Positions 20,998 to 64,000 of a DNA stretch of 64,000 nt are shown piece by piece. Position 1 is the first letter of the stretch. The number at the start of each line of letters is the position of its first letter. The translations under genes were made by a program, and so were the position numbers. The notes beneath the pieces were generated by a model. That model worked only from the letters and a program-made list of their open reading frames with translations. It ran no database searches and was not told where the DNA came from. The stretch is from Candidatus Anstonellales archaeon (GTDB lineage: Archaea > Micrarchaeota > Micrarchaeia > Anstonellales > J096), in the NCBI GenBank assembly GCA_038896535.1, contig JAWACY010000002.1:176445-240444 (forward strand), written 5' to 3'.

Positions 20998-21448
20998 GTA
21001 AGAATAGCCATGTATAATCAAATTTGCCTTCTTACGAAGGGCTTAATAGGGGCTGGAAGTTTGTAAGAAGGCGTGTGTATAAGGGTTAGCGCCTTCTTAC
21101 AGGGGAGGATAATTGTAAGAAGGCATGTGTAATAGTCAATTTGCCTTCTTACGAAGGGCTTAATAGGGGCTGGAAGTTTGTAAGAAGGCGTGTGTATAAG
21201 GGTTAGCGCCTTCTTACCACAGGGAATAATAGCGGCTGGATAATTGTAAGAAGGCATGTGTAATAGGGTTAGTGCCTTCTTACCGGGAAGTTTGTAAGAA
21301 GGCGTGTGTAATAGGGTTAGTGCCTTCTTCAATAAGCGTATAATAGGGGCGGGATGTTTGTAAGAAGGCGTGTATATAAGGGTATTGCCTTCTTACAGGG
21401 GGGGAAGATTGTAAGAAGGCATGTTTATAAGGGTTAGCGCCTTCTTAC
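20998..21448 (-). repeat. Palindromic tandem array 1: 8 units of GTAAGAAGGC-N17/18-GCCTTCTTAC with 10-28 nt linkers
   Basis: Units at 20998 (degenerate), 21063, 21115, 21180, 21246, 21294, 21360, 21411; opposite orientation to arrays 2 and 3. Confidence 0.97.
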
Positions 21449-32244: not shown

Positions 32245-32302
32245 ATGTTAATTCAATAATAAATATTTATAAGCCTTTCACTATAAAAATAAATACTAAA
32301 AT

Positions 32303-32401
32303 GGGCCAGTAGCTCAGCCTGGCGGAGCGACGGTCTTATAAGATCAGCTCTGCTACATCTAAGACAGCCGTAGGTCCTGGGTTCAAATCCCAGCTGGCCC
32401 A
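32303..32401 (+). tRNA. tRNA-Ile(TAT) with 25-nt BHB intron at 37/38 (intron 32341..32365)
   Basis: GGGCCAG/CTGGCCC acceptor stem, ACGGT-CT-TAT-A^A-GCCGT, BHB helix CTTA/TAAG with 3-nt bulges. Confidence 0.92.
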
Positions 32402-32403
32402 TA

Positions 32404-32639
32404 GTAAGAAGGCGCTAACCCTATTATGCACGCCTTCTTACAATCATCCCGTCCCTATTATTCCCTGTAGTAAGAAGGCACTAACCCTATTATGCGCGCC
32501 TTCTTACAATCATCCAACCACTTTTATTCCCTGTAGTAAGAAGGCAATGCCCTTATATATGCGCCTTCTTACAATCATCCCGTCCCTAATATACGCTTGT
32601 GGTAAGAAGGCGCTAACCCTATTACACACGCCTTCTTAC
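32404..32639 (+). repeat. Palindromic tandem array 2: 4 units, exact 66-bp period, starting 2 nt after tRNA-Ile
   Basis: GTAAGAAGGC arms at 32404, 32470, 32536, 32602; a degenerate linker follows to ~32667. Confidence 0.97.
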
Positions 32640-32889
32640 AAACTTCCAAACCCTATTATAGACTTTGGTTGGGGGGGTAATGGTAGTGGAAATGCTTCTT
32701 AATCTTAATCTTAATCATTTAATCTTTTTGATAGGAAAGGGCATGAGTGGAAAAGCCATAATGGCTTGATAAGAATCAAAAGGCACAATAATCAAATAAT
32801 CAAATAACAACACAATGGCATTAAATGGCATTAAATTAAGATCAATAGCATTAAATAGTATTAATATCAATAATAAAACACAATAATTT

Positions 32890-57735: not shown

Positions 57736-58434
57736 ATGAAAGAAAGGGCATTGAGAGAAAAGTTTATGCAAATAGCAAAACAAAAACTTGAAGAAAAAAG
57801 AAAAAGGAATGATCTTTATATAATACAATTAAATAGGACATTAGATGATTTATATGGAATAAAAAATAAGCTTGAAGAAAGGATTAATGAATGGGCTTAT
57901 ATATATGGCATTAAGGAGAAGGGCAAAAGGCTGGTAGAAAAAATAAAAGAGCTGAAACCTGATAAAGATTGGATAATGGAAAAAGAAAGAATAGAAGCAA
58001 TAAAAAATACAGCTGCTTTAATTGAAAAAGTAGAAGAAGAGATAGAGAATAAAGAGAATTTAATTGAAAAATGCACTGCTCAGATATTGCCAAATGCATA
58101 TGCCTTAATAGGAGGTAAGCTAGTTGCAAAATTCTTATCTCTTGCTGGAAGCATTGAGAAATTAGCCGAAATGCCAGCAAGTACTATACAAGTTTTAGGT
58201 GCAGAAAGGGCATTGTTTAAGCATTTAAGAGCAAAAACAAAACCGCCAAAACATGGTATATTGCTATTAAGTCATTACGTTAATAAATTACCAAAGCATA
58301 AAAGGGGAAAAATGGCGAGAGCTCTAGCTTCAAAATTGGCAATAGCATTCAAAGCAGATTTATCTGGGCATTTTATAGGAAAAGAACTTAAAGATGCTGT
58401 AGAAAAAAGGTTCAAAGAGCTGTCAAAAAAATAA
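57736..58434 (+). CDS. nop5: Nop5 (Nop56/58) Nop-domain protein, short N-terminus
   Basis: PASTIQVLGAERALF, PPKHG, RGKMARALASKLAIA. Confidence 0.88.
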   Translation: MKERALREKFMQIAKQKLEEKRKRNDLYIIQLNRTLDDLYGIKNKLEERINEWAYIYGIKEKGKRLVEKIKELKPDKDWIMEKERIEAIKNTAALIEKVEEEIENKENLIEKCTAQILPNAYALIGGKLVAKFLSLAGSIEKLAEMPASTIQVLGAERALFKHLRAKTKPPKHGILLLSHYVNKLPKHKRGKMARALASKLAIAFKADLSGHFIGKELKDAVEKRFKELSKK

Positions 58435-63117: not shown

Positions 63118-63621
63118 ATGAAAAAATTATTAAAAAATATAGTGGCCATTTTAATTTTATTTTCTTTATTCATGTTACTTTTAATTTCTACATCAAAAAA
63201 TGTTTATGAATTTTCAATAGTTGACGGAGATACTGTAAAAAATAGCCATTCATATTTTAGGGCAATTTATATAGATACACCAGAATTAAAAGAACAAAAG
63301 GAATGGGTTAAGAATATAATAAATAATGAAAGCTGCTTATCGTATTATGGGAAAAAAGCAAAAGAATTTATTACGAGCAAAGCACAAGATTTTTATGTAT
63401 TTTATTCTGAATTTTTTAAAGATAGGTATGGCAGATTTCTTGCTGAATTCAATTATTATAATGGAACAAGCTTAGAGCTTGACATGGTTAGAAATGGGCT
63501 TGCTTTATGTTATTACAGAAACGCAGTTTTTTATTTACCAAAAACGTATGAATGTTTAAAAATTGAGCAGGTAGCAAAAAATAGAAACATTGGGCTTTGG
63601 TCTTGCATTAAGCAGGGGTAG
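63118..63621 (+). CDS. Thermonuclease (SNase-like) with N-terminal membrane anchor
   Basis: VDGDT, IDTPE, DRYGR.LA, MVRNGLA, GLWS. Confidence 0.9.
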   Translation: MKKLLKNIVAILILFSLFMLLLISTSKNVYEFSIVDGDTVKNSHSYFRAIYIDTPELKEQKEWVKNIINNESCLSYYGKKAKEFITSKAQDFYVFYSEFFKDRYGRFLAEFNYYNGTSLELDMVRNGLALCYYRNAVFYLPKTYECLKIEQVAKNRNIGLWSCIKQG

Positions 63622-63697
63622 CCAAGTCTGGTCAAAGGCGCTAGCTTCAGGGGCTAGTCCCTTAGTGGGTTCGTGGGTTCAAATCCCACCCCCTGCA
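63612..63697 (+). tRNA. tRNA-Leu(CAG)
   Basis: GCAGGGG/CCCCTGC acceptor stem, CTAGC-TT-CAG-GG-GCTAG, long variable arm, TTCAAAT. Confidence 0.95.
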
Positions 63698-63699
63698 TA

Positions 63700-64000
63700 G
63701 TAAGAAGGCAATGCCCTTATATATGCGCCTTCTTACAATCTTCCAACCACTTTTATTACCTGTGGTAAGAAGGCACTAACCCTATTATGCGCGCCTTCTT
63801 ACAATCATCCAACCACTTTTATTACCTGTGGTAAGAAGGCACTAACCCTATTATGCGCGCCTTCTTACAATCATCCAACCACTTTTATTACCTGTGGTAA
63901 GAAGGCACTAACCCTATTATGCGCGCCTTCTTACAATCATCCAACCACTTTTATTACCTGTGGTAAGAAGGCACTAACCCTATTATGCGCGCCTTCTTAC
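63700..64000 (+). repeat. Palindromic tandem array 3: at least 5 units (65-66 bp period), starting 2 nt after tRNA-Leu, running to the window end
   Basis: GTAAGAAGGC arms at 63700, 63765, 63831, 63897, 63963; units 2-5 identical. Confidence 0.97.

Follow-up and report, generated by a model that had tools for sequence, protein, structure and literature searches.

Arrays of a lineage-specific palindromic repeat directly behind tRNA genes in a very small hot-spring archaeon

This paper concerns a family of short, tandemly repeated DNA palindromes found behind tRNA genes in a very small hot-spring archaeon, a member of the Candidatus Anstonellales (assembly GCA_038896535.1, designated G000 below). 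The genome comprises 751,790 bp in five contigs (C1–C5) of 31–34% GC, and is 91% complete. The stretch analysed, which we call the window, is 64,000 nt of contig C2 (JAWACY010000002.1, positions 176,445 to 240,444), and its last base is also the last base of the contig. Three arrays of the repeat occur in it (Table 1): two follow tRNA genes, and the third, in inverse orientation, stands without one. A sequence-only reading of the window had described a tRNA-Leu discriminator followed by TA and then by a tandem array, and had seen the same junction behind a tRNA-Ile. The first is confirmed by ARAGORN, Rfam and Tandem Repeats Finder, and so is the second, the gene being tRNA-Ile(UAU) with four units at 32404–32639. 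The third array, the contig end at base 64000, and the cas genes that lie outside the window had been missed.

Table 1. The three arrays of the window and the tRNA genes that two of them follow
Feature	Position in window	Strand	Basis and remarks
tRNA-Leu(CAG) gene	63612..63697	+	Discriminator A at 63697; ARAGORN; Rfam RF00005, 56.4 bits
Spacer TA, 2 nt, discriminator to first hairpin	63698..63699	+	Identical TA spacer behind six tRNAs
Array, at least 5 hairpin units, cut by contig end, continuing on C4	63700..64000	+	Pattern match, Tandem Repeats Finder
tRNA-Ile(UAU) gene, 25-nt intron	32302..32402	+	ARAGORN with introns; Rfam
Array, 4 non-identical units and terminal linker, then G/T-rich decayed arm	32404..32667	+	Pattern match
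Orphan array (without tRNA), 7 units and one decayed	~21026..21448	-	Pattern match

The hairpins of the tRNA-Leu(CAG) array lie at 63700–63736, 63765–63802, 63831–63868, 63897–63934 and 63963–64000. Units 2–5 are identical; unit 1, with a loop of 17 nt, measures 65 nt, and Tandem Repeats Finder reports a period of 66, 4.6 copies and 96% matches. Behind tRNA-Ile(UAU) the hairpins start at 32404, 32470, 32536 and 32602, and the junction CCCA|TA|GTAAGAAGGC is common to both genes. The pattern GTAAGAAGGC-N14-22-GCCTTCTTAC matches the window 15 times, five of them in the tRNA-Leu(CAG) array, compared with no match in 100 dinucleotide shuffles. The perfect 10-bp stem and the 66-nt period originally proposed are confirmed. 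The arrays are also, as had been remarked, richer in GC than their surroundings (0.42–0.43 versus 0.22–0.32 in the flanks), with a GC skew of −0.30 to −0.37; that is, they are C-rich on the tRNA strand. The orphan array begins about 45–60 nt from the start of a divergent PCNA-like gene, and a TATA-like box lies ~20 nt upstream of its first hairpin.

Each unit consists of GTAAGAAGGC, a loop of 17–18 nt and GCCTTCTTAC—together a hairpin of 37 or 38 nt—followed by a C-rich linker. A scan of the whole genome that tolerated two mismatches per arm returned 70 hairpins. Three of these (C1:52775, C1:271897 and C2:131051) are isolated, with foreign loops, and were discarded as chance matches; the remaining 67 units occupy 17 contig-level loci, or 16 arrays once the start of C4 is joined to the end of C2. 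The arms read GTAAGAAGGC or ATAAGAAGGC. Fifty-seven of the 67 hairpins are fully paired, and in at least 66 of them the inner 8 bp do not vary. The outermost pair is G-C in 50 and A-T in seven, the A-T form being confined to three neighboring arrays on C1; because this amounts to one compensatory change, the evidence that it provides for pairing as such is thin, although the palindromes of related genomes, described below, add to it. The loops are far less uniform: 43 of the 67 are distinct, they fall into three types of which each array is a mosaic, and their last six bases vary mostly by transitions. When the tRNA-Ile region is folded as RNA, a cloverleaf followed by hairpins is predicted, with a z-score of −5.65.

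The linkers form a single family, of which 33 members are long (28 nt) and 12 are short, comprising the first 10 nt of the long form. Twenty-four of the 28-mers yield a clear consensus in which most columns are invariant, and linkers so alike are not variable spacers. Nor do they look like decayed tRNA 3′ ends: local alignment to the last 34 nt of all tRNAs scores no better than shuffled sequence (P 0.15–0.28). Exact matches between the 3′-terminal 22 nt of a tRNA and its own array reach 4–8 nt at the longest (mean 5.2), compared with 5.4 for other arrays and 5.1 for tRNAs that lack an array; a single longer match, of 10 nt, occurs between the tRNA-Leu end and the linkers of other arrays. Rfam offers no family for the arrays, either at gathering score over the whole window or at E≤1 over 32250–32720, RtT (RF00391) included; the first reading had not recognized the family either. 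Judged from the sequence, the units contain no C/D or H/ACA boxes, and no toxin gene adjoins them of the kind expected for type III antitoxin arrays. Where the motif CCCTATTAT occurs outside the arrays, it simply reflects Ile-Ile-Gly codons read in antisense, and no meaning attaches to it. A coding role was also considered and rejected: one frame is open, but units of 65 and 47 nt break it, it lacks a start codon, and the arrays sit right against tRNAs. Since the unit is stop-poor, spurious open reading frames of 80–166 aa do traverse the arrays, at 21018–21332 (−) in the window and at C1:320084–320326 (−) and C1:166428–166928 (−), and gene callers may annotate them as repeat proteins.

The arrays are not artefacts of assembly, a possibility that the first reading had left standing. 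Interior arrays combine differing units and have unique flanks, and the tRNA-Ile/array junction is spanned, with zero differences, by independent contigs from three runs (X1 record 5, X2 record 16 and X3 record 24), one of which may itself be the sample of origin. C4 opens with the same hairpin unit with which C2 ends, and the two overlap by exactly 93 nt. Because this overlap falls inside the tRNA-Leu(CAG) array, the array continues past the window and its unit count is a lower bound. By eye, other contig ends are shared as well—the end of C1 with the start of C3, and the end of C3 with the start of C5—and the assembly is probably joinable. Logan contigs merely break at the arrays. At certain of their joints within the orphan array (a skip of 111 in four runs, and go-backs of 52 and 113) the sides are short; these joints are possible repeat artefacts, and we do not count them as length polymorphism. 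For those who assemble genomes of this kind from short reads, the practical consequence is that the arrays break assemblies at tRNA genes.

The genome contains 43 tRNA genes, a number on which ARAGORN and Rfam agree, and it is to the 3′ ends of these that the arrays are linked. Twelve of the 16 begin between −1 and +4 nt from a tRNA discriminator, every one of them on the tRNA strand. They follow tRNA-Leu(GAG, CAA, UAG and CAG), tRNA-Arg(UCG, CCU and UCU), tRNA-Lys(CUU), tRNA-Thr(CGU and UGU) and tRNA-Ile(GAU and UAU). The spacer is TA in six cases, TT in two, and TAG, CTTG and CTGG in one each; in tRNA-Arg(UCG), the arm overlaps the discriminator. Were the arrays placed at random, 12 or more of 16 would fall within the same 6-nt interval after a tRNA with a probability of ~1e-42 (~1e-30 with one tenth of the genome taken as eligible); the genome-wide scan that the first reading had called for thus strongly confirms the link to tRNA 3′ ends. 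A perfect hairpin occurs within 8 nt of the gene end in 12 of the 43 tRNAs, compared with 10 of 683 open reading frames of at least 100 aa, and the 10-mer arm occurs 103 times in the arrays and once elsewhere in the genome. The array-bearing tRNAs, 12–13 of the 43 genes or about 30%, are limited to five isotypes.

The thirteenth array of the tRNA-linked set lies 83 nt behind tRNA-Leu(UAA). The intervening stretch (G000:C1:207430-207512) closes with a partial T-arm (…GGGTTCAAAT) and resembles pieces found behind tRNA-Thr in a congener, G003; it may be the remnant of a recombination or integration event. The remaining three arrays have no tRNA: one begins 6 nt past a stop codon, one lies ~100 nt upstream of a Lon protease gene, and one is the orphan beside the PCNA gene start. 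No hidden tRNA is present upstream of these three, the flanks being coding or promoter DNA.

None of the five tRNA-Leu genes lacks an array (P 0.0013), and all are identical in their last 22 nt; tRNA-Arg(CCU) and tRNA-Arg(UCU) likewise share their 3′ ends, and both have an array. Such sharing is consistent with arrays passing between isoacceptor genes by recombination within the tRNA 3′ half. The tRNA-Leu(CAG) gene of the window and tRNA-Leu(GAG) (G000:C1:31923-32008) are 98% identical, and their arrays belong to different arm subfamilies (GTAAG versus ATAAG); the likeness of the pair suggests a recent duplication accompanied by a change of anticodon.

The arrays also bear marks of growth at one place and decay at another. 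Identical two-unit blocks are repeated behind tRNA-Thr(CGU) and tRNA-Leu(CAA), and Tandem Repeats Finder reports periods of 114 and 117; because one- and two-unit blocks occur in duplicate, the arrays evidently grow in place. Defects in the arms are unevenly distributed: one of 14 first units has them, five of 32 middle units, and eight of 14 last units (Fisher P 0.013). Many arrays trail off, past their final linker, into a decayed, G/T-rich arm. The first reading had supposed that an element inserts or amplifies specifically at tRNA ends; of these two, amplification is borne out by the duplicated blocks, and insertion is not, neither an enzyme nor a target signal having been found.

Transcription of the arrays is suggested by what they lack. 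Archaeal RNA polymerase terminates at oligo-T, and tRNAs without arrays have runs of T4–T6 at +1 to +10. Between tRNA and array there is no run of T≥5, just as the first reading had it; the common GTAAG-type arrays also contain none, and the next T5 lies 15–386 nt behind the array. With no oligo-T at which the polymerase would stop, arrays are likely to be co-transcribed with the tRNA as long 3′ trailers. The genome encodes an RNase Z homologue of 303 aa (C3:39534-40397; E 8.7e-80, slightly below the equivalog cut-off).

The repeat itself appears to be private to this species. It was not found in 60 relatives, in a sample of 400 further genomes of the phylum (1/401, the one being G000 itself), or in viral contigs, and among 185,579 species representatives there was no array, but only 13 single chance hairpins in unrelated bacteria. 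A metagenome scan with a loose pattern returned at least 118 single hairpins, likewise attributable to chance. What is shared within the genus is the position. Three congeneric genomes have perfect palindromes of their own, unrelated to that of G000, at +1 to +3 behind 5 of 43, 9 of 44 and 9 of 30 tRNAs, respectively. Their stems measure 9–13 bp and their loops 3–4 nt; one arm contains a run of T and its partner a run of A, and tandem groups of two to five are frequent. Each genome has several arm sequences, every one self-complementary. All 13 matches to the hairpin pattern of G001 and G002 sit within 200 nt behind a tRNA. The tRNAs concerned vary by species, those identified in the congeners including Ala, Val, Gly, Ile, Thr and Leu, and in two congeners the DNA flanking the ortholog of tRNA-Leu(GAG) is plain and T-rich. 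When the flanks of the congeners were searched with an nhmmer profile of 49 G000 units, the best E was 0.4, and a related unit suspected by eye in G002 is therefore unsupported. In a sister genus of the same family, none of 24 tRNAs in the 400 kb examined is followed by such a hairpin. Position and architecture are thus genus-wide, and the sequence turns over faster than species form. Behind tRNA-Thr in G003 (L185 and L179) we noticed something further: tandem units of ~105 nt, each of which ends in copied tRNA-Thr sequence (T-arm and acceptor 3′ strand), and which are followed by that genome's own T-run palindromes. This is a classical tRNA-linked-repeat or attachment-site (att)-like pattern next to the hairpin family.

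Repeats behind tRNA genes have precedents. tRNA-linked repeats (TLRs) have been known in E. coli since 1978. Those of E. coli (the 178-bp repeat of tyrT/tyrV, and rrA/rrB/rrF) are non-coding, lie directly behind tRNA or rRNA genes in the same transcription unit, and number one to five per locus at several loci per genome; their function is largely unknown, and their hallmark is that the final 18–19 bp of each repeat duplicate the 3′ end of the gene before it (PMC8144298). The archaeal arrays resemble TLRs in lying directly behind tRNA genes with no intervening run of T≥5, but their units contain no copy of the tRNA 3′ end, do not match Rfam RtT, and belong to one family that serves five isotypes. 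Repetitive extragenic palindromes (REPs), together with the composite forms known as BIMEs and REPINs, are short (20–40 bp), species-specific palindromes with a conserved stem and a variable loop, which cluster, lie behind genes and are often transcribed as RNA hairpins; the definition given there includes a GTAG or CGTC tetranucleotide tag at one end, and the mobilizer is a RAYT transposase of the Y1/HUH class (PMC3733652). A short extragenic palindrome in many copies, clustered behind genes and with a conserved stem, a variable loop and a species-specific sequence, is also what we find here. Unlike REPs, however, our hairpin has an arm that begins GTAAG and bears neither tag, no RAYT/Y1 gene was found in the genome, the units are strictly head to tail rather than alternating, 13 of 16 arrays are tied to tRNA 3′ ends instead of being scattered over extragenic DNA, and the host is an archaeon. 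The lack of a RAYT is not without parallel, for REP families without one exist. In Methanopyrus kandleri, a palindrome CGTTA-N9-TAACG lies ~10 bp downstream of roughly half the tRNA genes, and is guessed by the authors to signal 3′ maturation (PMC5217627). It, too, is lineage-specific and stands behind a subset of the tRNA genes of a thermophilic archaeon, but it is single, short and different in sequence, whereas here we have arrays of 66-nt units. We found no description of arrays such as these from archaea of the DPANN group in the open-access papers searched.

The repeat is, then, a real, lineage-specific variant of the tRNA-linked and REP-like palindromic repeats. How it came to be as it is can be told in several ways, and to the one that we prefer we would give about an even chance: that it is a species-specific family that is co-transcribed with the tRNA as a trailer, amplifies in place, decays at the distal end, and spreads by recombination between similar tRNA genes. 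On this reading the arrays would have taken the place of the oligo-T terminator usually found right behind a tRNA, and would be transcribed with the tRNA as a structured 3′ trailer of 100–400 nt, with RNase Z cutting after the discriminator. Slippage or unequal recombination at the palindromes would expand and contract them. Transfer between isoacceptor genes would proceed by recombination through their shared 3′ halves, and the rare jumps to other isotypes would take some further route. The arrays would more likely be a tolerated, self-perpetuating by-product than an essential RNA, although an insulating or terminator role of the sort suggested by the T-run palindromes of the relatives may persist. 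They are an extreme form of tRNA-linked repeat: in a streamlined genome of 0.75 Mb, about 30% of the tRNA genes are followed by arrays placed with nucleotide precision.

Several observations sit awkwardly with this account. Three arrays stand without any tRNA. Recombination within tRNA 3′ halves cannot explain how arrays came to lie behind acceptor stems as different as those of Leu, Arg/Lys, Thr and Ile, and there is no microhomology between tRNA ends and linker ends to make up for it: the best anchored identity is 3.9 of 8 for tRNAs with an array and 3.4–3.75 of 8 for those without. Array-bearing and array-free tRNAs being alike in this respect, microhomology was rejected as a targeting rule. 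An exact junction and an intact unit nearest the tRNA fit neutral slippage less well than they fit the directed addition of units there, or selection that acts on the first hairpin. The inner stem is invariant while the loops vary, which suggests sequence-specific recognition by some factor for which this account makes no provision. Pfam searches, moreover, would miss an enzyme of a new kind, and the genome is 91% complete. Read-through of the arrays and release by RNase Z, finally, are matters that we only infer. The precise targeting of unrelated tRNAs and the invariance of the stem, which this account does not explain, keep directed insertion and a functional RNA in play.

Directed insertion would make the repeat an active, non-autonomous mobile element: an enzyme supplied by the genome, by a virus or plasmid, or by a host would recognize the end of the tRNA gene or its terminator, insert a hairpin and linker behind the discriminator, and by doing so repeatedly push older units outwards. 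Possible but unlikely as we judge it, this would account for the exact junction behind unrelated acceptor stems, the strict head-to-tail order, the intact proximal and decayed distal units, and the mosaic of three loop types. Sequences that are specific to each species, in a genus whose members share the target position, are reminiscent of REP/RAYT pairs, and the invariant arms suggest a sequence-specific partner. Against this must be set the absence from the genome of any match to Y1 transposase (PF01797, E≤0.01), tyrosine integrase (PF00589), reverse transcriptase (PF00078) or the TnpB zinc ribbon (PF07282), and the genes that adjoin the arrays, which are housekeeping. The repeat occurs on no viral contig; duplication of blocks in place explains part of the growth; and loops of which 43 in 67 are distinct have diverged too far for a recent burst. 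The att-site remnants of an element integrated into a tRNA gene would include a duplicate of the tRNA 3′ segment at the far side of the insert, together with an integrase: there is no tRNA fragment at the array ends, and no PF00589 candidate, the exception being the partial T-arm behind tRNA-Leu(UAA). The genome offers a compact natural system in which to ask how repeats reach unrelated tRNA 3′ ends with no known recombinase.

Somewhat less probable, in our estimation, is that the arrays exist for the sake of an RNA, the tRNA serving as promoter and processing signal, and RNase Z freeing a multi-hairpin RNA, or single hairpins, to act in trans as a sponge or scaffold, for example. The missing terminator between tRNA and array and the presence of RNase Z are as this would require, and so are stable hairpins with invariant stems, single-stranded parts that are C-rich and G-poor, and the TATA-like box at the orphan array. 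There is a precedent of sorts in murine gammaherpesvirus 68, in which tRNase Z cuts the tRNA-pre-miRNA transcripts and so frees hairpins that come immediately after a tRNA-like gene; that system is viral, however, depends on eukaryotic Pol III and on Dicer for its products, and is unrelated in sequence and context. The congeners manage without the repeat, moreover, and their own T-run palindromes would end transcription inside the first hairpin. Copy number ranges from one to at least seven, distal units decay, Rfam finds no match, the inner stem displays no compensatory variation, and there is no candidate partner. Whether archaeal pre-tRNAs bear long structured trailers, and whether these yield stable RNAs, are questions for which the arrays form a compact natural system.

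We doubt rather more that the hairpin acts at the level of DNA, as a bidirectional terminator, an insulator, or a protein-binding site that shields highly transcribed tRNA genes and the genes next to them in a compact genome, the arrays being redundant copies. The palindromes of the congeners, with T4–T6 on one arm and A-runs on the other, present oligo-T on both strands, and the M. kandleri palindrome described above stands in a comparable place (PMC5217627). The gene behind the array is convergent in nine of 12 cases, versus 13 of 30 for array-free tRNAs, but the trend is not significant (P 0.09). The hairpin of G000, by contrast, contains no T-run, and archaeal polymerase stops at oligo-T; only 12–13 of 43 tRNAs have the repeat; and a single copy would suffice.

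Another conjecture is a long shot: the tRNA 3′ end might act as a CRISPR-like leader, some unrecognized activity adding units singly behind the discriminator of selected tRNA genes, so that arrays would be polar, with young units by the tRNA and decayed ones farthest from it; hairpin RNAs released by RNase Z would have a role of their own, and each species would possess its own pair of repeat and enzyme. The likeness to CRISPR, with its Cas1-family integration beside a leader, and to casposons that insert at tRNA gene ends, lies in head-to-tail palindromic repeats, in an intact unit next to a constant 'leader', for which the tRNA end would stand here, and in the decay of the terminal unit; the differences are that there are no unique spacers, that the repeat of the genome's own CRISPR is unrelated, and that no cas gene lies beside the arrays. 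That the arrays are themselves CRISPR-like, or decayed CRISPR arrays, in which the hairpin would be the repeat and the 28-nt linker the spacer, is scarcely credible despite the regular period, the palindromic repeat, the decayed terminal unit, and a genome that encodes Cas1, Cas2, Cas6 and a type III effector, for it is contradicted by comparison of the linkers, which are one conserved family, the true array beside cas1 has an unrelated 37-nt repeat, and of the 16 loci 13 are behind tRNAs and none is beside cas genes.

That true CRISPR array, at C2:43228-43702, contains at least seven copies of its repeat, with unique spacers. It belongs to a complete-looking type III locus (C2:37500-48000) that encodes Cas10 with an HD domain, three RAMP proteins, Cas2, Cas1, a MarR-like regulator and Cas6. 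The statement in the first reading that no cas gene is present consequently holds for the window, and fails for the genome. Of the proteins that it proposed to look for in company with the repeat, Y1 and reverse transcriptase were not found, and Cas6 and one Nop-domain gene are present, but neither is beside an array. The Nop-domain gene is the only one of its kind, at 57940–58416 (+) in the window (C2:234384-234860), a short 241-aa frame whose match to the Pfam model is confined to the model's C-terminal two thirds. It adjoins no array, and is probably a housekeeping Nop5. TIGR-Tas systems place a Nop-domain Tas gene beside an array with variable dual spacers; here the Nop gene is not adjacent to an array, and variable spacers are lacking.

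One curiosity surfaced in the metagenomes. Ga0123342 (L008, L018, L030, L037, L068 and L115) harbors an unrelated element that has the same 10-nt arms, and yet differs from ours in its loops, repeats with a period of 52 nt in alternating orientation, and has no tRNA nearby.

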